IMG/VR virus record: IMGVR_UViG_3300020165_002937
Reading direction: 5' to 3' (one strand)
DNA from: a virus
DNA: 64,000 nt
Part shown: positions 13,722-43,157 of the stretch, piece after piece
Layout of the letters: each line of letters starts with the position of its first letter
Position numbering within the stretch: the stretch's first letter is position 1
Made by a program: the position numbers and the translations under genes
The notes under the pieces: generated by a model
What the model saw: only the letters and a program-made list of their open reading frames with translations
Database searches by the model: none
What the model was told of the DNA's origin: nothing

Positions 13722-15128
13722 ATGTCCTACAAGAAGTTCAAGAATAAAGACATAATAATAAACACGATGAGGACTCACCCCAAAAGTGAGTTCTTTATTT
13801 ATGACGCAAAAGTTTATTACAATAATACGCCAACGAGAGCAGGCCAGTTCAACCCAGAAACGATATTGTCCGTTGGTCGACATAACGAAAAGTACACTGG
13901 TTATATTAGCCTTTACGAATACAACATAGATCGTAATGGATCAAGCAACCCTTTTATGTTCCCATACATAAACAAGAACACATCAAGGACTAGCTTCAAG
14001 ACAGCTGGCGATGCCTCAGCGCCAAATGAATGGTCAGGCGCTGATGTCGGGGCGATACTTACGAGTAACTACCCCTTGTCGGCATCGATTACGAGAGAAT
14101 GGATGCCCGATCCGATTGCAAAAGTTGTCGGCCCCGGGTGTAAAAAAGTTGATGAAGCTTTAGACAGCTCTGAGTTAGAAGCCTGCGCCCCTAAACACCG
14201 TCACTTTTACTCTTTAAAAAACAAACTTGAATACAATTCGATAAGAAGCTACCATTACAAAGTTAGTTCGTCAGTTACACCAAGCGACCCTACTTCAAAT
14301 GGTTGTCGCGGCCGCGGCGCAGTAGGTAGCCTAGGCGCCCACGATTGTAATGGGTTTAATAAAGAGGGCCAAAAATTAAATTTAATATCCATTCCTTCAA
14401 TTTTTTATGGCAAGACCATAAAGCCCGGTTCAGTCTCACTCAAGTGGTATTATACTGGAAGTCTTCTGGGAGAACTTAGGGACACGAAAAGAAATGGTGA
14501 GCTAATACAGGTCTCGGGCGCATTTTCGTCCTCTCAAGGCGGCATGTTAGGTGGCAACCACATTGGCGCGGTTGCTGGAACCATACTCTATGATCAAGGG
14601 TTTGTGATGTTAACCGGTTCATGGAACCTGGCTGAATCTGATACGGTCGGTGTTTTACCAGCTGCCGCCAGAGATTATCCAAAATGGATTTACTGGGCCG
14701 CCGGCGCCAACGAAACGGGTGCTGCCGCAGATATAGTTAACAAGAGCACTGCTCATTCATCACTGTTTAACGCTGCCTTTTCTATGAATTTTGAAGGTTC
14801 TACTGATACCCAAGTCATGACTATGTTTGCCCGAACTGGCAAGGGAGAATCGAATTATTCGAACAACCCCACATATGCACAGTTTGGCCAAGAACTCACA
14901 AGAGTTACGTCTTCTTTCTTGTACGAAGAGAACCCAGAAAGAATGACCTTTAACACAGTTAGTTCAAGTTACGCGGCCCACTCAGCTTCTTTTGAACGCC
15001 AAGTTTATATATCTAAAGTTGCAATTTACGATGATTCTAAAAACTTAATTGGAATTGCCTCTTTGGCGACACCGGTTTTGAAAAAAGAAACACAAGACAT
15101 GACGTTTAAGATTAAATTAGATATTTAG
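13722..15128 (+). CDS. virion structural protein, paralogue of 12589..13719
   Basis: Shares NYSNNPTY...YISKVAIYD...LIGIASLATPVLKK...KLDI with the upstream gene. Confidence 0.55.
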   Translation: MSYKKFKNKDIIINTMRTHPKSEFFIYDAKVYYNNTPTRAGQFNPETILSVGRHNEKYTGYISLYEYNIDRNGSSNPFMFPYINKNTSRTSFKTAGDASAPNEWSGADVGAILTSNYPLSASITREWMPDPIAKVVGPGCKKVDEALDSSELEACAPKHRHFYSLKNKLEYNSIRSYHYKVSSSVTPSDPTSNGCRGRGAVGSLGAHDCNGFNKEGQKLNLISIPSIFYGKTIKPGSVSLKWYYTGSLLGELRDTKRNGELIQVSGAFSSSQGGMLGGNHIGAVAGTILYDQGFVMLTGSWNLAESDTVGVLPAAARDYPKWIYWAAGANETGAAADIVNKSTAHSSLFNAAFSMNFEGSTDTQVMTMFARTGKGESNYSNNPTYAQFGQELTRVTSSFLYEENPERMTFNTVSSSYAAHSASFERQVYISKVAIYDDSKNLIGIASLATPVLKKETQDMTFKIKLDI

Positions 15129-21225: not shown

Positions 21226-22620
21226 GTGAAAATCAAAAAGTTAGAACTTACGGAGATTATTAAAGAAGAAATCAATAAATTTATCACTGAAGATGATTTT
21301 GATGATTACATGCAGTCGATCACGACAACGTCTAAGGCCGCCCAACGCACCCAAGGCGCCGCAAACAAAGCAACTGCACCTATGAGGGCAACTCGCCAAT
21401 TCCTAATTAACGAATGTGGAAATCAAAAGATACTCCGCGCTATGTTCGGACACGAGAATGAGCGAGATATTGATTTTAATCTTGCTGAAAAAGATTGGCC
21501 AGAATATGGACCTGTATCGGAACAGGCTGAAGATTTTTATTTCGCTGTCAGTAATCTCGTTACCGACTGGGTTGGTGATGACGAGTATGATGGTCGCTAC
21601 AATCCCAATACCACATTTCAATATTTAGCTCCAACGCGCGCAAGGTCGTCTTATGGTTCAATGATTGTGAACTCGGACGGTAACGGCCCACTGCTTGTCA
21701 AATGTAAGCTTACAATAGACAAATACATCGGACTAAACCCGGATTCTGGACTCAAGCCGCTTGAAGAAAGACAGCCAAATTTATATACAGAAGGAATTGC
21801 TAAAATGAAGATTAGAAGGTCACAACTTGAAGATATTATCAAAGAAGAAGTATCAGCCATGGTAGAGGAGTTTGGAGACGACTCACCCTTCCGAATGCGC
21901 GACATGGTGCCACCAAAGGTTCGTGGAAAATTTAAAGATACATTTACCAAGATACCCCACCCCGGACGCGCGCACTTGATGGGTAAAGAAAGAAGACCTA
22001 ACGCTCAAGAAAAAGCTGCATGGAAAGCAGCCGGTGGCTATCTTAGTGTATTCGATAAGCCGGCGATAGCTCAATTTCTTGAAGACGCAGGACTGTATGA
22101 CCCCGAATTCGGGACCAGCTCTCTCGAAAAATATATGGATAATGTAAAATACGCTATCAAGGGTGATCGCTTGGGCCGCCAAATTAACTCTCTCGTCGAT
22201 GCACTGGCGTTGGCTAATAAGACAGGCTCTCGACGCGGCCACTTAAAAACCGCCAAGAAAAAATCCAATAAGCCGCCACAATTTACAAGAGAGTCGATTG
22301 AACGAATCACCAAAGAAGAGCTTTCGAGTGTGCTCCATGAGCGCTCTAAAAGTTTCACATATAAAGTTATCGAAGATGAATTTGATGGCGGACCAAAGGT
22401 AGAAGTCGAGGGAATTGATAAAACTTTTGAGCAAATGATAGAGGAATTAGAAGGCAAAACCTTAGACTTTGGTGACGAACCACCCTTTAAATTTAGTATC
22501 GATTTGTTTGATGGTGAGCCATGGAAGATGATCGTCAACGGCCAGGCACCGGCATATATTGAAATGTGGGCAGAAATGAACGGATTCGAAGCAGAGGAAA
22601 CCGGAAAGGCATATTACTAA
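21226..22620 (+). CDS. hypothetical modular protein with three copies of the IIKEE leader (putative internal head protein)
   Basis: MKIKKLELTEIIKEE at the start, MKIRRSQLEDIIKEE at 21805, FTRESIERITKEE at 22282; SD AGGAG before GTG. Confidence 0.65.
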   Translation: MKIKKLELTEIIKEEINKFITEDDFDDYMQSITTTSKAAQRTQGAANKATAPMRATRQFLINECGNQKILRAMFGHENERDIDFNLAEKDWPEYGPVSEQAEDFYFAVSNLVTDWVGDDEYDGRYNPNTTFQYLAPTRARSSYGSMIVNSDGNGPLLVKCKLTIDKYIGLNPDSGLKPLEERQPNLYTEGIAKMKIRRSQLEDIIKEEVSAMVEEFGDDSPFRMRDMVPPKVRGKFKDTFTKIPHPGRAHLMGKERRPNAQEKAAWKAAGGYLSVFDKPAIAQFLEDAGLYDPEFGTSSLEKYMDNVKYAIKGDRLGRQINSLVDALALANKTGSRRGHLKTAKKKSNKPPQFTRESIERITKEELSSVLHERSKSFTYKVIEDEFDGGPKVEVEGIDKTFEQMIEELEGKTLDFGDEPPFKFSIDLFDGEPWKMIVNGQAPAYIEMWAEMNGFEAEETGKAYY

Positions 22621-22621
22621 A

Positions 22622-23260
22622 ATGAAACTGTTAATAGAAAATTGGAACAAGTTTTTGAACGAGAAACAAAATGCCGCATCGATGGTAGCTTCCGCTTTTC
22701 AGAATACAGATCCGAAATATCTAGAAGACACTCTGTCGACCCGCACAGCCGGCCCCGGCGCCGCTGGTAGCACTTTTTCCGGTCCAACTTCTATCCAAGA
22801 TTTAATACAAGCCGGTTGGCAACCACACCCTCATCCGGCAATAAACACATCTATTGGAGCCATTGGGTTTAAGGCCGCAATTCCCGGTGTGTTAGGAATC
22901 GCTGATATTGACGAAGCACCAGACGAAGTTGTGTTTCAACCAGCACACGGTGGCAAAGCAATGACTAAAGAGCCAAATCCGCAAACTGGTGAACCAGAAG
23001 TTTTGGCAGAGGTTGTTGCAGATATTCCTGCTGCGGCCCGTGAAGTCAGGCACACAACTTTAATCATTGGGCCATCTAGAGAAGATAAAGAAAAACTGCA
23101 AGTTTGGACTTTTCACCCCGGTGATCCAACGCCGCAACTTCCCGAAATAACAATGCGAGAAGTTAAAGAAAGATACAACACTACCGAAGATCGCATTCGT
23201 GGCAGTAAACAAGATGCTGTTGATATGGGATACGGCTTTGTAAAGCACGGTAAAATTTAA
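22622..23260 (+). CDS. hypothetical protein with MKLLIENWNKFLNE leader (putative internal head protein)
   Basis: 212 aa; leader shared with 24411..24848; C-terminal HTTLIIGP...VWTFHPGDP. Confidence 0.65.
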   Translation: MKLLIENWNKFLNEKQNAASMVASAFQNTDPKYLEDTLSTRTAGPGAAGSTFSGPTSIQDLIQAGWQPHPHPAINTSIGAIGFKAAIPGVLGIADIDEAPDEVVFQPAHGGKAMTKEPNPQTGEPEVLAEVVADIPAAAREVRHTTLIIGPSREDKEKLQVWTFHPGDPTPQLPEITMREVKERYNTTEDRIRGSKQDAVDMGYGFVKHGKI

Positions 23261-23271
23261 GGAAACTAACA

Positions 23272-24414
23272 ATGTCAGACGAAAAAGAAGATAAAAACGA
23301 ATTTGATTTTCTGCCTCCCGCAGAACCACCTCCCGCGTTTGCGCAGGAAAAAGACAGTTACCACGAAGAAGTAGATGCAGAAGATTTCGGTATGGTTGAA
23401 GACTTCGGATTACAGATGGAATACTCTGATGAAGATTTACTCCCCGAGAATACAGCACCCTCATCTATCAATGTTGGTTTTGTCGGTGTCGGCGGTGGAG
23501 GCAATAAAATGGCTAATGCTTTTATTGAGCTTGGCTTCAACAAAACATTGCTTGTCAATACAACAGGCAAAGACATTCCAAAGAATGTCGAAGAGGACCA
23601 CGTTGTCCTTATCCCCGATTCTGATGGAATCGGCAAGAACACTGAATATGGAAAAGAGGTTTTAAGTCAAAATGGCGCGATTGTTGAAGATGCCCTGCGT
23701 ATCAAACTCGGTAAAGTTGATTGGTTATTCGTCCTTGCTGGCGGCGGCGGCGGTACCGGTAGTAGTGTTACCGCTCTGCATCCTGTCTTTGAGCGTTACA
23801 TGCGCTCTGTGCAATCGAGTGGCAAGGTCGTTTACATAGTCTCTTGGCCAACAGCACAAGAAAATCTTAACCCCACAATCGCTCGTAATGCGTTGACGCT
23901 GGCAAATGACGTCACCAAGTATCCGCATATCATTTTAGACAATGAACGAGCCACACGATTACTGCGCGGCCGCATTGGCATGCTTGGCATGTACCCAGTC
24001 GCCAACACAACTTTTGCTAAGTCACTTGCCCAAGTGTTAAAGCTCTCCACCGAGGATTCACCGATTCAATCTTTTGACAGCAAGGATTTGGAAACATGTT
24101 TGGGCAATGACGGTCGTGCCTTCTTAGGCTCAACTATGATAAAGGATCCAAATACTGCTAAGCTTGGATCGGTGATTCTCCATAACTGTATGAATAGGTC
24201 AGCGTGCCCCCCACCGAAAGGTAAGGCCGCGGCAGGTTCATTGGTTTTGGTAGTCTCGGAAGAGATGGTGGCTGACCCTAAAGTCAGTAAGAATATTGAG
24301 TCGGCAATCGCTTATGTCGGCGGTCGATGCGAGACACTTTTCTCTGGCGTTTACGTCCGAAAGAATGTGCCTGGATTGATTGCGATACTAAGTATGAATG
24401 GATTAGCGACATGA
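23272..24414 (+). CDS. tubulin/FtsZ-family GTPase (phage PhuZ/TubZ-like)
   Basis: GVGGGGNK, DGIGKN, signature AGGGGGTGS, LDNE and T7-loop-like SFDSKD; ~65-aa acidic N-terminal extension. Confidence 0.9.
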   Translation: MSDEKEDKNEFDFLPPAEPPPAFAQEKDSYHEEVDAEDFGMVEDFGLQMEYSDEDLLPENTAPSSINVGFVGVGGGGNKMANAFIELGFNKTLLVNTTGKDIPKNVEEDHVVLIPDSDGIGKNTEYGKEVLSQNGAIVEDALRIKLGKVDWLFVLAGGGGGTGSSVTALHPVFERYMRSVQSSGKVVYIVSWPTAQENLNPTIARNALTLANDVTKYPHIILDNERATRLLRGRIGMLGMYPVANTTFAKSLAQVLKLSTEDSPIQSFDSKDLETCLGNDGRAFLGSTMIKDPNTAKLGSVILHNCMNRSACPPPKGKAAAGSLVLVVSEEMVADPKVSKNIESAIAYVGGRCETLFSGVYVRKNVPGLIAILSMNGLAT

Positions 24415-24848
24415 AACAACTATTTGAAAATTGGAACAGGTATTTGAAAGAAGATGAGCAGCAATCGCTAGCGATTGACATGTCTCCTGCGCGCTCGCCT
24501 GAAGAAGTAGCGGAATTAAAATTTAATACATTCCTTGAAAAACACGGCGATGAACTTAAGCAAGAATTTGAAGATTCAATCGATGGACCTGAAGCTTCAG
24601 GAACATTCGGCTATATGGAAGAAATTTTCGATGATTATTTTCTTCGATCCGCCGGCGATTATCACAAAGATGAGGCGTATAGAAAACTGATTCAAGTCAT
24701 TGATCATGAAATCAACGACTTTTACAGTTATATGGAAAAAGGACGAACCACTTTTGACAAGGGTTTGAAATTTTTATTTATGAGAGTATTAGAAGCGCAT
24801 GATGAATTGAACTGGGACAAAACAAATAAAATACCAACAGAAAACTAA
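24411..24848 (+). CDS. cassette gene 1: acidic hypothetical protein with MKQLFENWNRYLKE leader
   Basis: ATG overlaps the tubulin TGA (ATGA); the stop TAA lies inside repeat copy 2. The ORF-track start 24327 is judged too early. Confidence 0.7.
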   Translation: MKQLFENWNRYLKEDEQQSLAIDMSPARSPEEVAELKFNTFLEKHGDELKQEFEDSIDGPEASGTFGYMEEIFDDYFLRSAGDYHKDEAYRKLIQVIDHEINDFYSYMEKGRTTFDKGLKFLFMRVLEAHDELNWDKTNKIPTEN

Positions 24849-24877
24849 GTATGAATGGATTAGCAACATAGGAGATT

Positions 24878-25120
24878 ATGATGAAAATTACAAAACAACA
24901 GCTTAAACAAATTATCAAAGAAGAATTAGCCGAGGTAGGTCAATATGGATTAGGGGTGCCGGGAGGTTCCACAAGTTCCGTAGCAGATCCACACACCGCC
25001 GCAATAGAAGCTCTTGCAGATTACATACGCAACAGACTACCGTACAGAGAAGATCAAAAGCTTTTAGAACTTTTACAAACTGCTGAAGAAGCGGTTATTG
25101 ACTTTGAGAACGAACTATAA
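24878..25120 (+). CDS. cassette gene 2: hypothetical protein with MKITKQQLKQIIKEE leader
   Basis: SD AGGAG at 24870; the stop TAA lies inside repeat copy 3. Confidence 0.75.
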   Translation: MMKITKQQLKQIIKEELAEVGQYGLGVPGGSTSSVADPHTAAIEALADYIRNRLPYREDQKLLELLQTAEEAVIDFENEL

Positions 25121-25139
25121 GTATGAATGGATTAGCAAC

Positions 25140-25373
25140 ATGAAGATTACAAAACAACAACTTAAACAGATTATTAAGGAAGAGATAGAAGGACTACCGG
25201 AAGCCGGCAGCTTTACGCGCCGATCTACAATCACCAAAATCATCCGCGACGAAATCATCGGTCTTATGGAGGATCAGGGGTTTTTCGAGATGGGGGCGAT
25301 TCCGCAATCCGTTATTAAAGCTGTTGAAAATACCTCCTTACGTATCGCCGACACAGTGGAAGGAATGGATTAA
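25140..25373 (+). CDS. cassette gene 3: hypothetical protein with MKITKQQLKQIIKEE leader
   Basis: ATG at the end of repeat copy 3; stop inside copy 4. Confidence 0.7.
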   Translation: MKITKQQLKQIIKEEIEGLPEAGSFTRRSTITKIIRDEIIGLMEDQGFFEMGAIPQSVIKAVENTSLRIADTVEGMD

Positions 25374-25377
25374 CAAC

Positions 25378-25791
25378 ATGAAGATTACAAAACAACAACT
25401 TAAGCAGATTATTAAGGAAGAGTTAAAGGATTACACGCGCGGCGAAGCCCGCAGTCCTGAAATTCAGATCCCGGGCTATGGCATTATGACTGTTGAGGGG
25501 GTTAAAAGAAAATTAGCTGTTATGTTACAAGAGGCTGCCGATGATGCAACCAAAGACCCACCAAGCTACTCGCACCTCAATGGCGGCGTCATCCAGGCGC
25601 TCCACCAAGCATTAAGAGATCACTATCAAAATTCCGAAGAATCCCTTGAAGAAAAGATCAAGGAAGTTGAAGGTGGATATAAGGCGACCACTAAGAGCGG
25701 TAGACCATTATCAAAAAAGCCAAAGACAAAGAAAGGCGCTCAAGCCCAACTCGCAGCAGTGGAGATATCAAAAGCCAAGAGAGGTAAGTGA
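25378..25791 (+). CDS. cassette gene 4: MKITKQQLKQIIKEE leader plus basic C-terminal module
   Basis: ATG at the end of repeat copy 4; Lys-rich C-terminus after SLEE. Confidence 0.7.
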   Translation: MKITKQQLKQIIKEELKDYTRGEARSPEIQIPGYGIMTVEGVKRKLAVMLQEAADDATKDPPSYSHLNGGVIQALHQALRDHYQNSEESLEEKIKEVEGGYKATTKSGRPLSKKPKTKKGAQAQLAAVEISKAKRGK

Positions 25792-25991
25792 TGGCAGCTG
25801 CAACAAAAGCTTTCGTGGATACATGGTTGGCAAAACTTACTTCCCGCAAGCTGATGGTGTGGCTTACAGCGACCGGCCTAACCTTTACGGGGCATGTTAC
25901 TAGCGAAGACTGGGTGTTAATCTCCGCTATATATATTGGGGGCCAAACTGTTATTGATGGGTTGGCTCGTTTAAAAGGGTACAATGATTAA
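25791..25991 (+). CDS. putative holin
   Basis: 66 aa with two hydrophobic segments after SRKL; SD GAGG; precedes spanin-like genes. Confidence 0.55.
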   Translation: MAAATKAFVDTWLAKLTSRKLMVWLTATGLTFTGHVTSEDWVLISAIYIGGQTVIDGLARLKGYND

Positions 25992-26367
25992 ACAAAAGAT
26001 ACTAGAATTTACTCTGAAGAATTGGAAGGCAATACTAATAGTGTTGCTTTTGGCTGTTATAGCCCTCAAGAATACACGCGATTATAGGCTGATGCAAGAT
26101 GCCTATGAGACCCAACTAGAATCCCATGAAGCACAAATTGAAGGCTTGAAAGAAATACATAAGCAAGAAATTCGTGAAAAACAAAAACTAATGGAAGAAC
26201 ACATGGAGTCAATAGCAGCAATCGAAGAAGATTATGAGAATGCCCTTGAAATGATTCAACAATTGAGAGAGGATAAAAAGGGCGAATATAGAAATAAATT
26301 CAATCAAGATAGAGAGCAGCTAATTAAAGACATAGAAAGCCGATTTGGTATTCAATATGCTCCTTAA
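25984..26367 (+). CDS. putative inner-membrane spanin-like protein
   Basis: Single N-terminal TM (AILIVLLLAVIAL) followed by a long coiled coil; overlaps the holin-like gene. Confidence 0.5.
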   Translation: MIKQKILEFTLKNWKAILIVLLLAVIALKNTRDYRLMQDAYETQLESHEAQIEGLKEIHKQEIREKQKLMEEHMESIAAIEEDYENALEMIQQLREDKKGEYRNKFNQDREQLIKDIESRFGIQYAP

Positions 26368-26773
26368 ACTGCTTTTAGTGCTTAGTCTTTCAGCGAATGC
26401 AGTTGAGCCGGCCAAGTTTACCATCTTGGAATATAAGGCGCCAGCACCATTCGCAGGAGTTTTGTTCGACGAAAAGGCCATGGCTAAAATGCTGGCAGAT
26501 TATGATATATACAAGTATTCATGCGATATAAAAACTGATTATCAATTAAAGATCCAAAGAGAAGAATATGACTTTAAGTTGAAAAACTTAAAAATAGAAC
26601 ATAAATCCTTAACAGATGAGTATGATTTGTTTATAATGCAGAAGGATAAAGAAATTAATCTTTTATCTAGCGCCTTAAAAAAAACCTCCCCCCGCCACAA
26701 ATGGTTGTATTTTGCTGGTGGAATCCTCATTGGCACTGCCGCCTCGTATGGCGCTTATAAGACTCTACAATGA
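26357..26773 (+). CDS. exported coiled-coil protein with C-terminal TM (possible spanin partner)
   Basis: Signal peptide MLLKLLLVLSLSANA, coiled coil, and C-terminal hydrophobic WLYFAGGILIGTAASYGAY. Confidence 0.5.
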   Translation: MLLKLLLVLSLSANAVEPAKFTILEYKAPAPFAGVLFDEKAMAKMLADYDIYKYSCDIKTDYQLKIQREEYDFKLKNLKIEHKSLTDEYDLFIMQKDKEINLLSSALKKTSPRHKWLYFAGGILIGTAASYGAYKTLQ

Positions 26774-27162
26774 CCAACAAAAATTTAAATAAAATAGCAG
26801 CTATAGAAAAAGCCATCAGCGAAAAGTATGGAGATGAAGCAATTCAAAATCCTCACACAAATTGGTCAGAGGAAAAAGAGAAAATGTATTTAGAACAGCT
26901 AGGTGTGTTTTATAGTAAAAGTCGCAAGTCCGATGCTTGGGAAGAAAAAATAGACATTGATGGCGTTAAAGTGTCAAAAAAACTACTTAGTAGAGAATCT
27001 TTAGCAAATTGTCCTGTCTGCGGAAATCTTCCTAAGAAATCACTGGATGATGTGTGTCTTGTAAAATTTGAATGTTGCAGTTATTGTTACTACAAATATG
27101 TTGAAGACAGAGAAAAAAGATGGTCAACCGGTTGGCGCCCCGAAATTAAAAAGGATAAATAA
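26770..27162 (+). CDS. hypothetical Cys-rich (putative Zn-binding) protein
   Basis: CPVC...C...CCSYC; ATGA overlap with the upstream gene. Confidence 0.65.
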   Translation: MTNKNLNKIAAIEKAISEKYGDEAIQNPHTNWSEEKEKMYLEQLGVFYSKSRKSDAWEEKIDIDGVKVSKKLLSRESLANCPVCGNLPKKSLDDVCLVKFECCSYCYYKYVEDREKRWSTGWRPEIKKDK

Positions 27163-27166
27163 AAAA

Positions 27167-27712
27167 ATGGCTACAGTATATGAAATTATTCAAGGTCTCT
27201 CGCAAGCAGCAGCAAATGCTTATGACGGAGCTTTAAACGAAGAAGGTGAGTCTGTGTTAGCCGGCTTGAACCGGGAGGATGGAAATCCCCTTATTGATCG
27301 CCGGGTAATAGATGGATTTAATGTCAGGTTTTTCGGAAACAAAATGATTCTGGCATATCATTCGGAGACCAAATTAAAAGAAGTCTACAGGGGCGGCTTT
27401 GAAGATAATATTGACAGTACGTTAAACGATGTAGCCTCTTTTTTAAAGAAAGAATATAAAAAGATTACTAAAAATGGTGTCTCACTGAAGCAGGAAGGTG
27501 AGACCGATATTCGTGTGGAAGCCACCAGCCGAGTAAGAACTTGGGTGACAGCCGTTCGCACTTATATCATTGAGGATGTGAGTACCGAAACAACAGTTCC
27601 TCAATATTCCTCTGATTCTTTGCAAGATGGATACAAAAAGTTTCTTGAACTTGGCGACTGGAAGGGTAAGCGCCCCGACAACGATACGCGAACTAAGAAC
27701 GGCGATCAATAA
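27167..27712 (+). CDS. hypothetical protein
   Basis: Likely start MATVYEIIQG at 27167 (AAGGA upstream); in frame with the ORF-track call. Confidence 0.65.
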   Translation: MATVYEIIQGLSQAAANAYDGALNEEGESVLAGLNREDGNPLIDRRVIDGFNVRFFGNKMILAYHSETKLKEVYRGGFEDNIDSTLNDVASFLKKEYKKITKNGVSLKQEGETDIRVEATSRVRTWVTAVRTYIIEDVSTETTVPQYSSDSLQDGYKKFLELGDWKGKRPDNDTRTKNGDQ

Positions 27713-27714
27713 TA

Positions 27715-28263
27715 ATGAAAATTTCTAAGCAAGAATTGAGACGCATTGTCTTAGAAGAGTTTATGTTAGAAGAGGGTATCGAGACAGAGGCCCTTTCTCC
27801 CGAAAAATTTGATCAGATGATGAAGAATATCAAAAGTAATCGTAAAGGTAGTAGGCCAATTCCGCCTCCACCAGAAGTACCCCGACCAAAAGGAAAAGGT
27901 CTCCCCCACGAAGATACAATGCCTATGGATATCCCAGCAGACGATGCCCCAGAAAGTGAATATTCCGGCTTCCAAGATCGCCCGGGCGCACATCTAGAAG
28001 ATCAGATATTCTCCCTAATAAAAGGTATGTCACCGGAGGACGTCCAGGGGTTATTCCAGGATGTGTTTGAAATGTTGCCTGGGATTGAAATGCAGCAACA
28101 AGAGCCCGACGCAAAACCTTCTACGGAATATGGCGGCGAAGAATTTGAACTCCGTCAACGACAAGGTAGAATTGCCGGTATCAGAGAGGTACTTGAACTT
28201 GGTGACCTGATGGCCCTTATTCGCGAAGTGATCAAAGAGGAAGATAACCTTAAAAATGTATGA
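27715..28263 (+). CDS. hypothetical protein with MKISKQELRRIVLEE leader
   Basis: Leader family motif, plus a second copy-like LIREVIKEE near the C-terminus; overlaps the terminase start. Confidence 0.65.
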   Translation: MKISKQELRRIVLEEFMLEEGIETEALSPEKFDQMMKNIKSNRKGSRPIPPPPEVPRPKGKGLPHEDTMPMDIPADDAPESEYSGFQDRPGAHLEDQIFSLIKGMSPEDVQGLFQDVFEMLPGIEMQQQEPDAKPSTEYGGEEFELRQRQGRIAGIREVLELGDLMALIREVIKEEDNLKNV

Positions 28264-29843
28264 GCTTTCAACTAGACAAAAAACAAAAGGTCAAAGAAAT
28301 ATTAAAATGCGGTAAAGACCCATCTTATTTTTTGAAGACATACGCCCGTATATCCCACCCGATGCACGGGTTAATTCTTTTCGACACATATGAGTTTCAA
28401 GATGACCTATTGAAAGACTTCAATGATTACCGGTTCAATGTTATCCTTAAGGCAAGGCAGCTAGGGATTTCAACGATTACGGCCGGGTATGTTGTTTGGA
28501 TGATGTTATTCCATCGGGATAAAGCCATCTTAGTTATGGCCACAAAGTTTGCAACAGCAGGAAACTTAGTTAAAAAAGTCAAGAACATCATGAGAAACCT
28601 TCCTGACTGGCTTAAGATTGCGACCATTAGTGTCGACAACCGGACTTCTTTTGAGCTGTCGAATGGATCTTCGATAAAAGCCACTTCCACCTCTGGCGAT
28701 GCCGGCCGTTCTGAGGCTCTGTCGTTGTTGGTGCTTGATGAGGCCGCCCACATTGATGGTCTAGAAGAACTGTGGACCGGCCTGTATCCTACGCTATCTA
28801 CCGGTGGCCGCTGCATTGCCCTTTCAACTCCAAATGGGGTAGGTAACTGGTTTCACAAGACGTGCACCGACGCCGATGCATCCGCGAATAATTTTAATTT
28901 AACTACGTTACCTTGGGATGTGCACCCAGATAGAGATGAAGAGTGGTACAAGAAAGAAACCAGAAATATGTCGAAACGGCAAATTGCTCAAGAGTTACAG
29001 TGCAATTTCAATACTTCTGGTGAGACTGTTGTAGATCCCGAGTGTCTGGAGTGGTTATTTTCTGGTGTAAAAGAGCCCAAGTATCGAACCGGATTCGATA
29101 GAAATTTCTGGATCTGGGAAGAGTATGACCCGACATGCAATTATTTGTTAGTTGCCGATGTTGCCCGCGGCGATGGTGCTGATTACTCCACATTTCATGT
29201 TATAAAATTAGAAACCTTAGAAGCGGTGGCCGAATATCAGGGCAAGCCAGCCCTGGATATGTATGCGACAATACTTAATCAAGCCGGCCACGAGTTTGGC
29301 AACGCGTTGTTAGTCGTAGAAAACAACAATATTGGGTATTCGGTCTTAAATAAACTAATAGAGTTGGCATATCCTAATTTGTATTACTCCATAAAAACTT
29401 CTCATGAATTTGTAGAGCAACATCAAGCAGAATATCTTTCAAATTCGGTTCCAGGATTCACTACATCTATGAAGACGCGCCCATTAATAGTTGCCAAGTT
29501 GGAAGAGTTTATCAGAAATAAACTAATTACCATATATTCTTCTCGTTTAACTAACGAGATGAAGACCTTTATTTGGAAAAACGGAAAACCACAGGCTATG
29601 AAAGGCTACCATGATGATCTCATCATGGCGCTAGCAATCGCTTGTTGGGTGAGAGATACCGCAATACAAAACAGCGCCCGTGAGTTAAATTATAAAATGG
29701 CATATGCAAATTCAATTGTTACCTCTAAAACTTCCTTTAATACACAAATTAAAGGTCAAGAGGGCTACAAAAAAGATAATATATTTGATAAAATATCGGA
29801 AGCTAAGAATATGTATGACCAATACAAGTGGATTATTAAATAA
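28260..29843 (+). CDS. terminase large subunit (T4 gp17-like)
   Basis: Walker A KARQLGIST, Walker B LLVLDEAAH, STPNG, nuclease ADVARG and HDDLIMA. Confidence 0.95.
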   Translation: MSFQLDKKQKVKEILKCGKDPSYFLKTYARISHPMHGLILFDTYEFQDDLLKDFNDYRFNVILKARQLGISTITAGYVVWMMLFHRDKAILVMATKFATAGNLVKKVKNIMRNLPDWLKIATISVDNRTSFELSNGSSIKATSTSGDAGRSEALSLLVLDEAAHIDGLEELWTGLYPTLSTGGRCIALSTPNGVGNWFHKTCTDADASANNFNLTTLPWDVHPDRDEEWYKKETRNMSKRQIAQELQCNFNTSGETVVDPECLEWLFSGVKEPKYRTGFDRNFWIWEEYDPTCNYLLVADVARGDGADYSTFHVIKLETLEAVAEYQGKPALDMYATILNQAGHEFGNALLVVENNNIGYSVLNKLIELAYPNLYYSIKTSHEFVEQHQAEYLSNSVPGFTTSMKTRPLIVAKLEEFIRNKLITIYSSRLTNEMKTFIWKNGKPQAMKGYHDDLIMALAIACWVRDTAIQNSARELNYKMAYANSIVTSKTSFNTQIKGQEGYKKDNIFDKISEAKNMYDQYKWIIK

Positions 29844-29857
29844 TAAGAGAGAAGAAG

Positions 29858-31882
29858 ATGCCACCTACCAGTAACAAAAACAACCCAGCCAACAGACAAT
29901 CAGAGTTATTCAAAAGATTAACTAGGTTGTTCTCTGGCCCCATCATTAATTACCGCTCGCAGACCGGTCGGAAAATTAGAAGACAACACCTCGATAAATT
30001 TTCTGCTAGATTCAAGTCCGCCTCGGGCCAGCAATTTAAAAAGACCCTTTATAATCCATTAGACACAATTGCAACAAATGCAATCCAAAGTCAACGTAGA
30101 AACGAAAGATATGTCGATTTCGATCAAATGGAGTACATGCCGGAAATAGCTTCGGCCATGGACATCTATGCAGACGAGATGACAACCTTCTCAAGCCTTA
30201 GTCCGATGTTGAAGATTAAATGCGCAAACGAAGAGATACGAGCCGTGCTAGATATACTGTTTGACAACATTTTAAACTTACAGTATAACTTATTTGGCTG
30301 GGCGCGAACTATGTGCAAGTATGGGGACTTTTTCCTTTACCTCGACATTGACGAAAAGTTTGGTGTCAAATCTGTAATAGCACTTCCTCCACCAGAAATT
30401 GAGCGTTTAGAAGGCCAAGATTCCACCAACCCAAATTATGTACAATATCAGTGGAATTCTGCTGCCATGACTTTTGAAAATTGGCAGATAGCACACTTTA
30501 GAATATTAGGGCATGACAAATATGCGCCATATGGAACTTCGATTTTAGAGCCTGCCCGCCGCATTTGGCGCCAACTTACGTTGGCTGAAGATGCAATGAT
30601 GGCTTATCGAGTTGTGCGGTCTTCTGAGAGGCGCGTTTTCAAAATCGATGTTGGCGCCATACCACCCCAAGATGTTGAACAATATATGGAAAAAATTGTA
30701 ACCCAACTTAAGCGACATTCAGTTATTAACAAAGATACCGGTCGAGTTGACTTACGCTATAATCCAATGAGCATCGAGGAAGATTACTTTATTCCCGTAC
30801 GCCCGGGCTCTGTGACCGATATCCAAAACCTTGCCGGCGGCACTAACACTACCCAAATTGATGATGTCAAATATCTTCGAGATAAATTGTTTTCCGCTCT
30901 CAAGATTCCCCAGTCGTATTTAACAATGGGTGAAGGTGGGGAAGAAGATAAGACAACACTTGCACAAAAAGATATTAGGTTCGCACGCACCATCCAAAGA
31001 CTGCAGCGAGTGTTGGTTTCTGAGTTAACTAAGATCGGAATCATTCATTTGTATACTCTTGGATTCCGCGGCGATGATTTACTGAGTTTTAATTTGGCGC
31101 TCAATAACCCTTCCAAGATTGCTGAGCTTCAAGAACTTGAGCATTGGAAACAGAAATTTGATATTGCTGGCTCAGCGACGGAAGGATACTTTTCACGACG
31201 TTGGGTCGCAGATCATGTTTTTGGTATGTCAACCGAAGAGTTTGCAAGAAACCAGCGAGAAATGTATTACGACAGAAAACATGACGCATCACTCCAGGCA
31301 GTTGCAGAAGCTACCGCGATGGGCCCAGGCGGCGCCGACATGGGCTTAGGCTCCGACATGCCTCCCGCCGGCGGTGGAGGTCCAATGGAAATTACGCCCG
31401 GTGAGGCAGACACAGCGCTTCCCGATAATAGCGCCTCCGCGCCTGACGCAGCCGGCGCGCCTGCTGATTCGGGCAGTGACTCCGCACTGGTCGCTGTCCC
31501 TCCTGGAAACAGAGACTTTCGCCGTAAGAATAAGGCCCAAAGAACTCCCAATGATAAAGGGAAAGAATATTTTCCAAAGCGTGATGGTTCTAATTACAAT
31601 AACAAAGGCCGCCGGAAGGTATCCCTCAGTAGAGCTGCAGGAACCCATGATCCGAGAAAAACAGTGCCGGGTCTTAGTGACATAATGTCGCTAGTAAAAA
31701 CCACCGGCTATGCTAACGGTATAACTACGGAAAGTGATTATAACGAAGTTCCTTCTATTTATAATTTGAGGGAACGCACAGAAGAAGATAAACTTTTTGA
31801 AGTCAACCACTCAGTCAGAGATTTAATTTTGGAACTGGAAACCAAGACAAGCACAATAACGGAGCAAAAAAATGAAGACTAA
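29858..31882 (+). CDS. portal protein (T4 gp20-like)
   Basis: EDAMMAYRVVRSSERRVFKIDVG, EDYFIP, LFSALKIP and DIRFARTIQRLQ motifs; follows the terminase. Confidence 0.93.
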   Translation: MPPTSNKNNPANRQSELFKRLTRLFSGPIINYRSQTGRKIRRQHLDKFSARFKSASGQQFKKTLYNPLDTIATNAIQSQRRNERYVDFDQMEYMPEIASAMDIYADEMTTFSSLSPMLKIKCANEEIRAVLDILFDNILNLQYNLFGWARTMCKYGDFFLYLDIDEKFGVKSVIALPPPEIERLEGQDSTNPNYVQYQWNSAAMTFENWQIAHFRILGHDKYAPYGTSILEPARRIWRQLTLAEDAMMAYRVVRSSERRVFKIDVGAIPPQDVEQYMEKIVTQLKRHSVINKDTGRVDLRYNPMSIEEDYFIPVRPGSVTDIQNLAGGTNTTQIDDVKYLRDKLFSALKIPQSYLTMGEGGEEDKTTLAQKDIRFARTIQRLQRVLVSELTKIGIIHLYTLGFRGDDLLSFNLALNNPSKIAELQELEHWKQKFDIAGSATEGYFSRRWVADHVFGMSTEEFARNQREMYYDRKHDASLQAVAEATAMGPGGADMGLGSDMPPAGGGGPMEITPGEADTALPDNSASAPDAAGAPADSGSDSALVAVPPGNRDFRRKNKAQRTPNDKGKEYFPKRDGSNYNNKGRRKVSLSRAAGTHDPRKTVPGLSDIMSLVKTTGYANGITTESDYNEVPSIYNLRERTEEDKLFEVNHSVRDLILELETKTSTITEQKNED

Positions 31883-32711
31883 ACACAATAAAAAACGCAA
31901 CACCGCGTTTGTTTATGAAGCATTAATTAAAGAAGCTACTGTTGCTATATTAAAAAATGAAACCGATAAGCATACAAAAGTAGTAGATTTAATTAAAAAG
32001 TATTTTAACGGAGATTCTATTCTAAGAAAAGATTTAGATTGCTATCGGTCGTTATACGAAAACCAAAACCTTAGCCCAGAAACTTGCGCAAGGATTATTA
32101 CAGAATCAAAGTTCAGAAGAAAGATGATCACACCCGATCATCTTTTTAAGAAACAAAGTGAAATGATATCTGATATCAACAAGGAAGTGGACACAGAGGT
32201 CTTCAACAATTTTGTTCCAAATTATAAAAATTTAGCTACGATAGATCAAATTTTTTCTGGTCACTTAAGTCCGAAAAGACAAGTAATGCTTGAAGCTCAA
32301 TTGATTGATTCAATGAGCGCAAAACAAGTTGATGCAGGCAACCCAGATCAAAAGACTATAGACGAATCTACCTTTAAGATCTTTTTGAATAAATTTAATG
32401 ATAAATATGATAGCACCCTGCTCAATGAGCAGAAAGAATTGTTAGGGTTTTATATTTCATCCTTTTCTGATAATGCATTAGAACTAAAAGTGTTTCTAAA
32501 TGAAGAAATTACCAGGCTTAAAACTGAAATATCCAAAGCAATTACCGACAAAGCGCCAACCATCGATGCCAACATGACTGACAAAGCCGAAAGAATACTA
32601 AACAAGTTAGAAGAATTCAAGCTTTGTCAATTAGAGGACAGTACCCTTATTACTATAATGAAAACTCAAAAACTTGTGAAGGAGCTTAACGAAGATGTCA
32701 ATAAAGATTAG
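31872..32711 (+). CDS. hypothetical helical protein (possible prohead core component)
   Basis: 279 aa, between portal and protease, overlapping the portal stop. Confidence 0.6.
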   Translation: MKTKHNKKRNTAFVYEALIKEATVAILKNETDKHTKVVDLIKKYFNGDSILRKDLDCYRSLYENQNLSPETCARIITESKFRRKMITPDHLFKKQSEMISDINKEVDTEVFNNFVPNYKNLATIDQIFSGHLSPKRQVMLEAQLIDSMSAKQVDAGNPDQKTIDESTFKIFLNKFNDKYDSTLLNEQKELLGFYISSFSDNALELKVFLNEEITRLKTEISKAITDKAPTIDANMTDKAERILNKLEEFKLCQLEDSTLITIMKTQKLVKELNEDVNKD

Positions 32712-33234
32712 TATTGGTTCAAAATCCAAGCCACAAGAAGTTGTGTTGGAACTCGACATCAGAAAGAGCTTAAGTGGGGATTTCATGATCTTTGATCATG
32801 GGGACATCGACATTATTGTCTCACCAGAAAAAAATAAAGTTATAGCTTTTCCAAAAATTACCTTAAATGACTTGGTATATGGAGCGCAAAATAGACTCTT
32901 TGAGAGACTCAAAAACAAAGGCATCGTTGTGCCGGAAAGTATTCAAGGGGGTTCTTTTTTCGGAGCCTTCGAGGCAACCCTAGAAACGTCTACGGACGAA
33001 GCTGCTCTACCTTCAAAGATGGCTCTCCTAAATATCTCTAAATTTATTGACGAAGAGCGACCATACTTTGAATCTCTTGAGGCTATTGTGGCAATGGATG
33101 ATAGTGCGTTAGCTAACCCCGACAACACACATTCTACAGAGCTTGGCGAAGTACCACAGAGCACCAAGAAAGGTTCGATACAGCCCGGGTACATCCGAGA
33201 CACTTACTCATCTAACTACATGTATACGATATAG
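32695..33234 (+). CDS. hypothetical protein
   Basis: 179 aa; SD AAGGAG; overlaps the upstream gene. Confidence 0.65.
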   Translation: MSIKISIGSKSKPQEVVLELDIRKSLSGDFMIFDHGDIDIIVSPEKNKVIAFPKITLNDLVYGAQNRLFERLKNKGIVVPESIQGGSFFGAFEATLETSTDEAALPSKMALLNISKFIDEERPYFESLEAIVAMDDSALANPDNTHSTELGEVPQSTKKGSIQPGYIRDTYSSNYMYTI

Positions 33235-33241
33235 GCAAAAA

Positions 33242-33568
33242 ATGGACTTAATAACTTTTATATTATGCGCTTACGGGCTCACTCAAATACTAGTATATAG
33301 CGACATGCCGATGCTAAACAGGCTACGACCCTCAAAAGAAGCAGCAGGCGGATATGGCAAGGTTTTTCACTGCCCCATGTGCATGGGTTTTCATGTTGGC
33401 TGGCTTTTGATGTTACTTTCTCCATTTACAGAACTATTTAATTTTGACGTTTCCGTGTTAAATTTCTTCCTTCTTGGGTGGCTGTCGTCGGGAACATCGT
33501 ACGTATTAAACATAATCTTCGGCGACGAAGGAATAAATTTTCAAAAAACAGAGGTAAACAAATTATGA
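33242..33568 (+). CDS. DUF1360-like small membrane protein
   Basis: Start MDLITFILCAYGLT; FHCPMCMGFHVG CxxC motif flanked by TM segments. Confidence 0.6.
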   Translation: MDLITFILCAYGLTQILVYSDMPMLNRLRPSKEAAGGYGKVFHCPMCMGFHVGWLLMLLSPFTELFNFDVSVLNFFLLGWLSSGTSYVLNIIFGDEGINFQKTEVNKL

Positions 33569-33912
33569 TTATAACAAAATCCGAACTTAGAAAAATATTG
33601 AACGAAGAGATCGCTACGGCTTTAAAAGAAGCGCCAGAACCACCGCCCGAAAACAAGGTACCACAAACTGTAACCGTAACGCTCGAAAGAATGCAGGCTA
33701 TGCTTATGACCCAAATACAACAACTTGATGACTATAGCGAATTAGTTCCTTTTCTTGAGGGAGTACTCACCATGATCGAGAACGCAAACGAGAAAGATTT
33801 TACACAGTCTGAAAAAATCAGAACTTATCTTGATTTTGCTAATAGGTTCCGCAATCGTTCTAAGGATGTCCAACGGCAGGGCTCTCAAACCTCTGAGGTG
33901 CCTACAAAATGA
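33565..33912 (+). CDS. hypothetical protein with MIITKSELRKILNEE leader
   Basis: ATGA overlap, SD GAGGT at 33551; leader family motif. Confidence 0.7.
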   Translation: MIITKSELRKILNEEIATALKEAPEPPPENKVPQTVTVTLERMQAMLMTQIQQLDDYSELVPFLEGVLTMIENANEKDFTQSEKIRTYLDFANRFRNRSKDVQRQGSQTSEVPTK

Positions 33913-33977
33913 ATATCGATATATGGATCACCAAATGGATGTTGCAACCAGTACGCCACTGTTGTAAGGGAAGTTAG
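33909..33977 (+). CDS. 22-aa micro-ORF MNIDIWITKWMLQPVRHCCKGS
   Basis: SD GAGGTG 8 nt upstream; ATGA overlap with the upstream stop; TAG ends 2 nt before the protease ATG. Confidence 0.5.
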   Translation: MNIDIWITKWMLQPVRHCCKGS

Positions 33978-33979
33978 CT

Positions 33980-34606
33980 ATGGGTCAGAAACTTTTAAGA
34001 GAATATTACGAGCTATGTGAAGGCGGAGTATGCCAAGATCTGCTAACGGAAGCCGAGAAGAAGTTTGTTGCTGAAGGTGGCATGATCTTGACTGGCAAAC
34101 TTCAAGAAGGTGGCGTCGTAAACGGCAACCGTAGAATGTACCCGCCTGAAGTTATCATACGAGAAGTAAACAGCTATAAGAAATTAGTTTCAGAACACCG
34201 AGCACTGGGCGAACTGGACCACCCCGAAAACAATGTTGTTTCTTTGGAGAGAGTGTCCCACCGAGTCACTGAGATTTGGATGGATGGCAATGTGGCTATG
34301 GGCAAGGTTCAAGTAATGAATACCCCAGCTGGCAAAATTTTGCAAGAATTAGTTATTGGTGGCTGTAAAATGGGAATTTCATCCCGCGGCATGGGTTCAG
34401 TAAGAGAAGAAAAAGATGTCACCATTGTTGAAGATGACTTTCAACTCATATGTTTTGATTTTGTGTCTGAACCATCGACACCTAATGCATTTATGATGCA
34501 AGAATCCAAAAACTTTCAAAACAAAATAATGACGAAAGAAGATAAGATTAACCGTCTGATGAATGATATCTTAATTGATGAACTGGTGAACGATGAAAAA
34601 AAATGA
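33980..34606 (+). CDS. prohead protease (T4 gp21-like)
   Basis: NGNRRMY, ALGELDHP (His), GISSRGMGS (Ser) and DFVSEPS motifs. Confidence 0.93.
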   Translation: MGQKLLREYYELCEGGVCQDLLTEAEKKFVAEGGMILTGKLQEGGVVNGNRRMYPPEVIIREVNSYKKLVSEHRALGELDHPENNVVSLERVSHRVTEIWMDGNVAMGKVQVMNTPAGKILQELVIGGCKMGISSRGMGSVREEKDVTIVEDDFQLICFDFVSEPSTPNAFMMQESKNFQNKIMTKEDKINRLMNDILIDELVNDEKK

Positions 34607-35015
34607 TTTAAAGAAGATTATAAAGCCACTAGTGAAAGAGTGCATCAATGAAATATTGATAGAAGAAGGGCTGCTTTCTAGTGTGGTAAGTGAAGTTGCC
34701 GCTGGCTTAAGTGCCGCCTCAGTGTTATCCGAGAGCACACCGGCCCCAACACCAGTTGTGAGAAAAGAGTCCCGCGTGGCTACAGCCAAAAACACTAAAA
34801 AACAAATAAATGAGTACCGACGCCAACTTATGGATTCGATTGGTTCGGATGCGTATAACGGCGTTGACTTGTTTGAAGGCACAGCTCCGATGAACAGCTA
34901 CGAAGCGGCATCTCCCAAAGCAGGTTCAGTTGACTTAGGCGACCCGGCTGATTCGGGTGTAAACATAAGTTCTTTGGTCGGTGACGCATCTAAGATCTGG
35001 CGAGCGATGAAATAG
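34593..35015 (+). CDS. hypothetical protein with leader-like N-terminus (MKKNDLKKIIKPLVKE)
   Basis: 140 aa, overlapping the protease gene end. Confidence 0.65.
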   Translation: MKKNDLKKIIKPLVKECINEILIEEGLLSSVVSEVAAGLSAASVLSESTPAPTPVVRKESRVATAKNTKKQINEYRRQLMDSIGSDAYNGVDLFEGTAPMNSYEAASPKAGSVDLGDPADSGVNISSLVGDASKIWRAMK

Positions 35016-35019
35016 AAAA

Positions 35020-35271
35020 ATGGCTAAAAGTAGAAAAAAAGCTAACGTAATCGTCAAGTCAAAGGAATGCCGAGGCAATCACGACAAGATGATAAGAAAG
35101 TTTATCAAGAAAACAAAAAAAGAAAAGATTGTCGAAGAGATTAAAGACCGCAAAAGATACAAAAAGCCTTCAGAAGCGAAGAAACAAAAGCGCCTTAAGG
35201 CAGAAAGACTTCGTAAGAGAGAAGAGCGAAAAAGAATAAGAGCACAAGAAAGACGCAATAGAAAAAAATAG
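35020..35271 (+). CDS. rpsU: ribosomal protein bS21 homologue
   Basis: 83 aa and highly basic; DKMIRKFIKKTKKEKIVEEIKDRKRYKKPSEAKK matches the bS21 pattern (F..K..K..I..E...R..Y.KPS). Confidence 0.8.
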   Translation: MAKSRKKANVIVKSKECRGNHDKMIRKFIKKTKKEKIVEEIKDRKRYKKPSEAKKQKRLKAERLRKREERKRIRAQERRNRKK

Positions 35272-41990: not shown

Positions 41991-43157
41991 ATGTCAAATC
42001 TGTTAAAAGAAGCGATTATCGATGCAAAAGCATTGCGCGAAACAGCCCTTAGAACTGCCGAATCTTCCATTATTGAGAAATATTCAGATGATGTAAGGAA
42101 AACCCTAGACAAGATCTTAGAGCAGGAAGATTTTGGGGATCCACAGGGTCTTGATGCAATGTCCCAAGATATGGGAGCATCCCCGGTGGCCTCTGCTGCT
42201 TCCGATGACGTAACTGACGACGTTCCTTTCGCTGCCCTCGATGATTTGGCCGAGGAAGAAGGTGAGATCGTAGACTCAATTGCAGATGGAGAATCCGTTG
42301 AAATTAATTTAGACTTACCTGCTTTAGAAGAAGCAGTAAAAGCATTTGCTGCTGAGCTTGAGGAACAAGAGGTTGATTTAGACGAGCTTGACCTTGGCTC
42401 CCTAACAGAAGAAGATGAAGAAACTCTCGAAGAAGACGAAGATGAGCTTGAGGAAGGCTCTCTTACCGATACGACCGATAAAGTCTCGTACGCCGGCCAA
42501 ATTGGAGACGAGAAGGCTGGAGAAGCAGCTGATCGGATGGGTGACTTAGCCCAAATCTCTGCAATTGCCGCAGAGTCAGTCGACCCAGACCTCGATGAAA
42601 ACGCGCTCATCGATGCAATCTTAGAAAAGTTAACAGTTGATGTACGTGGTGAGCTTGGTGGTTGGGCCGGCCGCTCCGCTGAACAAACCATTTATGAAAC
42701 AGAAAGAGAATTAGCACATCGTCGAAGTACGCATGTGGAAGAAGAATTAGAAGATCTTAAAAAAGCTTATGAAGACTTAGTTTTCGAAAATAAACAAGTT
42801 ATCTCAGACGCTGATAAGTACAAGCAGGCGCTTTATGAAATGAAAGACAACCTTGAGGACGTCAACCTTTCAAATGCGCGCTTGTTATACACGAACCGTG
42901 TTTTACGAAATACCTCCCTAAATGAGCGACAAAAAAATAAAATTGTCGAAGCGATTTCTAGCGCTGGTTCAGTAGCAGAAGCGAGGACAATATTTAAAAC
43001 CCTTGAAAGCGCAGTGGAGTCTGTACCAAACAAGACACCTAAATCACTGAGCGAGGCAATTTCCCGTCCTACCTCTGTTATTCGCGCATCTCGTCAAGAG
43101 ACTGTGCAAACCGACTCATTCTCCCAGAGAATGAAAAAACTAGCAGGTATAAACTAA
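41991..43157 (+). CDS. prohead scaffolding/core protein (T4 gp22-like)
   Basis: Very acidic coiled-coil protein immediately before the major capsid gene; SD AGGAG before ATG 41991; ends RMKKLAGI. Confidence 0.75.
   Translation: MSNLLKEAIIDAKALRETALRTAESSIIEKYSDDVRKTLDKILEQEDFGDPQGLDAMSQDMGASPVASAASDDVTDDVPFAALDDLAEEEGEIVDSIADGESVEINLDLPALEEAVKAFAAELEEQEVDLDELDLGSLTEEDEETLEEDEDELEEGSLTDTTDKVSYAGQIGDEKAGEAADRMGDLAQISAIAAESVDPDLDENALIDAILEKLTVDVRGELGGWAGRSAEQTIYETERELAHRRSTHVEEELEDLKKAYEDLVFENKQVISDADKYKQALYEMKDNLEDVNLSNARLLYTNRVLRNTSLNERQKNKIVEAISSAGSVAEARTIFKTLESAVESVPNKTPKSLSEAISRPTSVIRASRQETVQTDSFSQRMKKLAGIN

Follow-up and report, generated by a model that had tools for sequence, protein, structure and literature searches.

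The internal proteins that T-even phages carry are diverse, and the capsid-targeting sequence (CTS) is the only part they have in common (PMC3012670). In T4, the first 10 residues of IPIII are enough for packaging, gp21 cuts after L/I-x-Glu, Asp at P1 (the last CTS residue) blocks processing but not targeting, and the CTS may be a route by which T4-like phages load varied proteins (PMC9026906). The relevant T4 sequences are MKTYQEFIAE/A in IPII and IPIII, ...ITE/A in IPI, MELITELFDE in Alt, MAKINELLRE/S in gp24, and ...FLTE/AEIGGD in gp23. Here, we analyze a 64,000-nucleotide stretch of viral DNA, IMG/VR record IMGVR_UViG_3300020165_002937 (the window, with all genes on the + strand), in which short leaders of two types, A and B, begin proteins whose remaining sequences are unrelated. 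An earlier note on this DNA had read these leaders as address tags that load interchangeable cargo into the prohead. We find T4-style capsid-targeting tags to be the best explanation of what is circumstantial evidence, and put its probability at roughly 60%. The window, which has T4-type head genes, comes from a large aquatic myophage that is uncultured. By terminase, the cultured phages nearest to it are Flavobacterium phage immuto, with 49% identity, and Microcystis phage Mel-JY01, with 46%; the large terminase (TerL) of the uncultured 484-kb phage LR756508.1 is likewise 46% identical to that of the window.

The type A consensus is MKITKQQLKQIIKEE and its variants, and that of type B is MKxLxENWNxxLxE. 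All six type A starts named in the earlier note are recovered by a leader hidden Markov model (HMM) at 16 to 48 bits, far beyond chance: the strict type A pattern occurs six times in the six-frame translation, compared with a mean of 0.003 in residue shuffles. The first opens a 464-aa protein (21226..22620) at a GTG start (21226-21270) with AGGAG 8 nt 5' of it (16.3 and 19.0 bits); this open reading frame (ORF) contains a second full leader copy at 21805-21849 (MKIRRSQLEDIIKEE) and a degenerate third near 22312, which give it a fused, multi-module look. Three cassette proteins of 79 aa (24881..25120; 48.1 bits), 77 aa (25140..25373; 45.4 bits), and 137 aa (25378..25791; 42.6 bits, with a basic C-terminal tail) have leaders of the same protein sequence and only synonymous differences in DNA. 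The remaining two carry variants: MKISKQELRRIVLEEF on a 182-aa protein whose stop codon overlaps the terminase start (27715..28263; 23.3 bits), and MIITKSELRKILNEE on a 115-aa protein in a variable slot directly 5' of the protease gene (33565..33912; 31.2 bits). The 27715 subfamily recurs in relatives, in one of which (G007) it lies just 5' of TerL. The type B pattern is found twice in the six-frame translation and not at all in the shuffles, at the two genes for which it had been reported: MKLLIENWNKFLNE begins a 212-aa protein that is a conserved gene of the lineage (22622..23260), and MKQLFENWNRYLKE begins a 145-aa cassette protein (24411..24848) whose gene starts before the tubulin gene has ended.

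The sequences behind the leaders are unrelated, as had been claimed: pairwise comparison of nine window bodies past residue 18 gives no significant similarity (best E-value 0.06). The Pfam scan assigns none of the bodies to a family, and PHROG matches only 25378, marginally (E 1.8e-4). The description of the leader as N-terminal holds for the starts of eight genes and fails for the internal copies in 21226 and for the leader-like C-terminal end of the 27715 protein (...LIREVIKEED). One proposed member drops out altogether. The 34593 protein (34593..35015, 140 aa), which had been listed as a looser type A case, has a leader-like N-terminal helix and is missed by the leader HMM; it belongs to a conserved post-protease family present in 12 of 12 relatives and is a candidate prohead core protein outside the leader family.

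We anchored the leader alignment on residues 1–9 only to avoid circularity in judging the residues that follow. The pattern [ILV][ILVM]xEE then falls at residues 11–15 in 125 of 137 type A leaders, and residue 14 is Glu in 135 of the 137 and Asp in none. Residues 11 and 12 are I/L/V, residue 16 is hydrophobic, 19 and 20 are mostly hydrophobic, and 21 and 22 are mostly acidic, after which comes a stretch rich in Gly, Pro, Asp, and Glu; a second hydrophobic-x-E at 20–22 is seen in many leaders. The fixed positions of type A are M1, K2, I3, T4, K5, L8, I11, I12, E14, E15, and the hydrophobic residue 16, and those of type B are W8, the hydrophobic residue 12, and E14. The predicted build is a charged amphipathic helix, spanning residues 1–16 in type A and often continuing to about 22, followed by a flexible variable linker and then an unrelated body. 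Another 12 N-termini, on bodies that differ, carry type B, again ending in L/I/V-x-Glu at 12–14. Both leader types therefore put (I/L/V)-x-E, the cleavage motif of T4 gp21, at residues 12–14. We discount as evidence two apparent resemblances, of type A to the N-terminus of the scaffold and of type B to the LLNKWxK..LLEG segment at the N-terminus of the major capsid protein (MCP), each of which would require a one-residue shift to be a copy.

Selection on the leader acts at the level of the peptide and not of the DNA, because third codon positions vary (entropy mostly about 0.5–1.4 bits) where the first and second positions of conserved residues barely do (0–0.6 bits). A 20-nt junction, AGTATGAATGGATTARCRAC, does lie directly 5' of the cassette start codons, at 24391-24410, 24848-24867, 25120-25139, and, in degraded form, 25358-25377 (four copies vs. 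0.02 expected). Read in frame it encodes KYEWISN, and it precedes leader genes at many IMG/VR loci. The leader is nevertheless not a by-product of this repeat, a possibility that we rule out because the junction stands before a minority of leader genes, only 25 of the 138 of type A and 4 of the 10 of type B. The junction may be a recombination site or an initiation element. A scan for the T4 late promoter TATAAATA gives 10 matches against 4.5 expected with none before leader genes, and scans for sigma-70 promoters and terminators show no enrichment.

The presumed processing enzyme is encoded in the window. The gene at 33980-34606 matches the gp21-type (S77) prohead protease family (PF03420) with 92.4 bits (cut-off 27), and its product aligns to the T4 gp21 structure 5JBL (E 6.7e-13) with the DHP His and SSRG Ser motifs kept. 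We take this His and Ser to be the catalytic pair known from gp21, and the protein is a true member of the S77 family, in agreement with the earlier note, and intact. The MCP gene at 43190-45004 is of the gp23 type (PF07068, 247 bits), and its product reads ...ELLRE/SSSMAGGDVEG, with a predicted maturation cut after LLRE (residue 60, codon 43367-43369); the previously noted LLRE/S site is present, and compared by eye rather than by formal alignment, it is placed similarly to the T4 gp23 cut FLTE/AEIGGD.

Leaders and protease occur together in relatives. Of 19 viral records that bear leaders, 15 have PF03420, among them all five that are at least 90% complete. The five complete genomes have six to nine leader matches each, and in four of them strong leader genes lie 6–22 kb 5' of the protease on the same strand. 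The order of the head module is fixed in 12 relatives: portal, a protein with KHNKKRNTAF, the homologue of the 32695 gene, a membrane protein with an FHCPMC motif, protease, the 34593 family, and the ribosomal protein S21. Variable slots interrupt this order around the membrane protein and the protease. The slots directly flanking the protease hold genes of type A or B, their bodies unrelated, at 6 of 13 loci (HMM E <1e-4), the 33565 gene of the window among them, and weaker type B-like starts occupy such slots at four more. For 33565 and 34593 we found no homology past the N-terminal helix to their positional counterparts in immuto and Mel-JY01. In the window, the stop of 27715 overlaps the terminase start, and the start of 34593 overlaps the end of the protease gene; these overlaps point to co-expression of both genes with the head genes.

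A diverged example comes from LR756508.1, whose leader consensus has changed at residues 4–7 and 9–10 and has kept L8, I11, I/V12, E14, E15, the hydrophobic residue 16, L20, and E22. An intein splits its S77 protease, which has four leader genes 5' and five leader genes 3' of it. The intein, in the protease ORF at positions 1981-3702 of our locus L102 (about 156.5–158.2 kb of the genome), contains a LAGLIDADG domain.

Scanning relatives and public data with leader models, as the earlier note had proposed, finds types A and B on many unrelated proteins. The exact 15-residue type A leader begins many unrelated metagenome proteins of 75–240 aa. The back-translated leader is present in 53 IMG/VR stretches, in which a loose pattern matches at 157 sites; the residue just ahead of the match is Met in 149, a GTG Val in 7, and Leu in 1. 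Together with the window they provide 133 unique leader proteins, whose bodies form 76 BLAST clusters, 55 of them singletons; no credible Pfam family was found for 132 leader proteins (two chance-level matches), and PHROG yields a handful of matches. A 30-column leader profile retrieves 12,267 cluster representatives (50% identity) at E ≤0.001 among 1.84 billion proteins. Almost all of the best 150 matches carry 2–4 copies of the leader, with the top-scoring site at residue 1 in 81, and their internal copies often retain Met-Lys.

The distribution of the leader is restricted to viruses, and it is almost absent from cellular genomes: among 185,579 prokaryote species (one genome each), only four loci have it, in two marine metagenome-assembled genomes (MAGs). 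These loci are most likely on phage contigs because both MAGs encode an S77 protease. The contigs, NHDW01000006.1 (305 kb; loci L107 and L110) and PBIO01000025.1 (101 kb; L108 and L109), are in MAGs classified as Methylococcaceae TMED69 and Halobacteriovorax sp., and are probably misplaced in these bacterial bins. Among cultured phages, the profile does not match T4 or the cyanophage S-PM2, and tblastn searches with a 28-aa leader and with the 25378 protein found no match, a test limited by the short query and the low-complexity filter. Flavobacterium phage immuto (vB_FspM_immuto), which is cultured with Flavobacterium sp. LMO8 as host, has a shorter version of the tag with the leader Glu at 12. 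Its leader genes begin MKKSELVKLIKEEL (191 aa, at about 102,250 of the record), MKKSQLREIIRKEL (about 102,837), MKKSQLRQIIKEAL (113,144-113,902), and MKKSQIVKAVQEVLEE (123,311-123,532). Literature searches on the leader motif strings and on Mel-JY01 returned nothing.

The 22622 family has a modular build. Its leader keeps W8 and E14 at 90% conservation or more, and the conserved domain starts only after a linker, placed behind E14, whose length varies. An alignment-based AlphaFold2 model, used in place of a single-sequence model with a predicted local distance difference test (pLDDT) of 33, gives the body as a confidently folded alpha/beta domain (pLDDT above 90, at 91) and the leader as a detached helix at about 58. 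The family has invariant H109, K112, R140, and H209. No Pfam match was obtained for 22622, and Foldseek found no match for its body in the PDB at E ≤0.001. Its structural neighbors in a VIA wide search are BrnT (Z 5.1), colicin D (4.8), CdiA-CT (4.8–3.9), and RelE/ParE-type toxins, all of them below the noise guide of the tool. From this modeled fold, an RNase-toxin-like function of the 22622 body is possible and is the sole lead on the identity of any cargo.

We propose that the leaders are portable N-terminal propeptides that would steer diverse small proteins into the core of the assembling prohead, where the S77 protease would then remove them after E14, as gp21 does with the CTS of T4 internal proteins. 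Cassette genes with either tag would swap in and out of the hyperplastic region 5' of the terminase and of the slots beside the protease, and the same protease would cut fused multi-copy forms back into modules. That the leaders bind the core and are cut after E14, and that the proteins are packaged and ejected, is what we infer; the motif statistics, the selection, the protease, its neighborhood, and the spread of the leaders are observed. We favor this explanation because selection acts on the peptide, Glu14 is nearly invariant with I/L/V at P3, the S77 protease is intact, leader genes occupy protease-side slots, the leader helix is detached in the 22622 model, and the tag is restricted to viruses. 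The address-tag proposal of the earlier note agrees with every indirect test that was run and is supported in part; among its details, 34593, counted there with the cargo, is a conserved core gene and not a swappable one, and the motif is found internally as well. Co-folding scaffold and leader, both as alignments, scored 0.00 without controls and counts neither for nor against binding.

Several observations weigh against capsid targeting. The leader has no sequence homology to MKTYQEFIAE, the two having in common just their first residues, MK, and the final I-x-E, and it is 14–22 aa long with a strict MKITK start compared with 10 aa in T4. The lack of homology makes the marine leader, at the level of sequence, an analogue and not a homologue of the T4 CTS. 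The (I/L)-x-E motif is short and could occur in any acidic amphipathic helix. Most bodies are acidic (pI below 6 in 95 of 132), and T4 IPII and IPIII are basic. Internal leaders and proteins with 2–4 copies are common, which could mean a repeated, multivalent binding helix, and we know of no T4 internal protein that parallels them. Leader arrays also occur at a distance from the presumed enzyme, about 39 kb from the protease in one relative (G009) and, in LR756508.1, at 189–195 kb and 219–221 kb, far from the head genes. Finally, the literature holds no virion proteome of a carrier, and the immuto papers found are, by title and abstract, not about virion proteomics.

Some of these same observations would be expected if the leader were a docking helix for a partner outside the prohead, such as the phage tubulin, the ribosome via the phage S21, or a host hub protein, and the bodies were recruited effectors that are neither packaged nor cleaved. 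The cassette array lies directly after the tubulin gene, some leader arrays are away from the head genes, the bodies are mostly acidic, and internal copies and 2–4-copy proteins suit multivalent binding. We nonetheless consider docking of this kind unlikely, as it leaves unexplained that Glu14 is never replaced by Asp or Gln, that two unrelated leader types have (I/L/V)-x-E at 12–14, and that phages separated by deep divergence repeatedly have leader genes next to the gene for the protease. A slightly smaller probability goes to a permanent anchor, never cleaved, that would fix accessory proteins to the capsid interior, to scaffold remnants, or to the portal, making them structural or decoration proteins rather than ejected cargo. 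Such an anchor predicts the same head-module neighborhood as a cleaved tag; residues 1–8 are strictly conserved although the putative cut is distant, which suggests that they form a binding surface themselves, and a helix like theirs begins the proteins of the conserved 34593 family. Yet the invariant Glu14-Glu15, preceded in both leader types by I/L/V at P3, and the second hydrophobic-x-E at 20–22 look like processing sites, and bodies that turn over so rapidly (133 proteins in 76 clusters) would be unusual as structural parts.

An explanation in which the leader has no function as protein, and is instead a recombination homology handle left by cassette shuffling or an A-rich 5' coding region that aids translation initiation, is already disfavored, and we think it very improbable. 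It draws on the conserved 20-nt junction that abuts some start codons, the A-rich leader DNA, and an obvious Shine-Dalgarno sequence in only 63 of 138 type A genes, but it is at odds with amino acids that stay fixed while third codon positions vary freely and with a junction that precedes only 25 of the 138. Copies deep within ORFs hold the full consensus, and the diverged phage retains the hydrophobic and Glu positions and changes others, both of which count against it.

Compared with known systems, the tags that we propose come closest to the CTS of T4 IPI, IPII, IPIII, and Alt, with which they have in common a short N-terminal tag on unrelated proteins, an (I/L)-x-Glu end, an S77 protease, and polymorphic tagged loci. 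They differ in comprising two interchangeable types, with six to nine or more tagged genes per genome and over 12,000 clusters in public data, in the frequency of internal repeats and polyprotein-like forms, and in the many tagged genes placed in slots beside the protease gene. The small T4 proteins gp67 and gp68, which the protease cleaves and whose genes neighbor its own, lying after portal gene 20 and before protease gene 21, match the upstream slot in position, and ...IDLIKEEK... of gp67 resembles ...QIIKEEL... of the leader. However, homology between the bodies is not detectable, the genes in the slots are variable in our case and not core, and gp67 and gp68 are scaffold components rather than cargo.

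More distant parallels exist. The propeptides of phiKZ-like giant phages are tens to hundreds of residues long. In these phages, which have a gp175-type protease that cuts after S/A-x-Glu, many head-internal proteins carry N-terminal propeptides that are removed after Glu, often at redundant sites (PMC9026906); unlike the leaders, these propeptides have no single consensus, and the cut motif is another one. Encapsulins likewise use a short portable peptide to load varied cargo into an HK97-fold shell, with tags that are usually C-terminal and uncleaved. In the MuF-type polymorphic toxins of phage heads a domain does the loading and the toxin tips can be swapped; RNase toxins are also what the 22622 body weakly matches. 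MuF is a large conserved domain. We found no homology of the leader proteins to encapsulin tags or to MuF.

If the tag works as we propose, it would provide a way to pick, from sequence only, the proteins of large marine and freshwater phages that are carried in the head and probably injected, a class that otherwise requires virion proteomics on cultured phages. The 12,267 clusters would then be a ready list of candidate host-takeover and anti-defense factors, two unrelated tags with a cut site at the same residue and polyprotein forms would extend what T4 has taught about head loading, and a compact tag would be available for packaging foreign proteins in phages of hosts other than E. coli. 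Immuto, as a cultured carrier, makes the idea directly testable. More speculatively, and in our estimate with somewhat less than an even chance of being right in full, a clade of large aquatic phages may run an open cargo-loading system with two (possibly three) interchangeable tags and a protease site at residue 14, in which the product of any small gene, or a fused polyprotein, could be loaded and cut free by the S77 protease. The more than 12,000 clusters, nearly all without a known family, would be a catalogue of effectors injected by ocean phages, and the LAGI motif of the scaffold would be a further tag.

This motif belongs to the gp22-like scaffold, encoded directly 5' of the MCP gene at 41991-43157, whose middle is acidic and whose C-terminal end is R(M/W)xxLAG(I/L). 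The motif (43128-43157 in the window) is invariant in every relative, including immuto and Mel-JY01. An unrelated immuto protein of 154 aa has it N-terminally (FRRMQKLAGII; locus L001, 2653-3117), and a protein of at least 583 aa in G007 has it at the C-terminus (RWQTLAGINKRIL; locus L033, - strand, near 14466). It may serve as one more address tag, copied from the presumed coat-binding end of the scaffold.

The other head genes of the window are the large terminase (28260-29843) and the portal (29858-31882). Three small genes 5' of the terminase (25788-26773) have transmembrane or signal-like N-termini, one of them with a coiled-coil tail, and look like a lysis cassette; genes similar to this trio lie just 5' of the terminase in Mel-JY01. 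The small membrane protein with the FHCPMC motif is encoded at 33242-33568, and in most relatives it lies between the portal-side genes and the protease. A gene at 35020-35271 encodes a ribosomal protein S21 (PF01165, 26.8 bits, just below the cut-off; phrog_21469). The relatives examined have a gene with a similar basic N-terminus at this place, after the 34593 family, and in Mel-JY01 it is annotated as RpsU. Between the protease and the scaffold, four consecutive genes (36491, 37346, 39045, and 40227) form a separate family with a shared MAY(N/K)... N-terminus, beginning MAYNILSGSV, MAYKFQIGQA, MAYNVLKGAV, and MAYNSQKGNQ.

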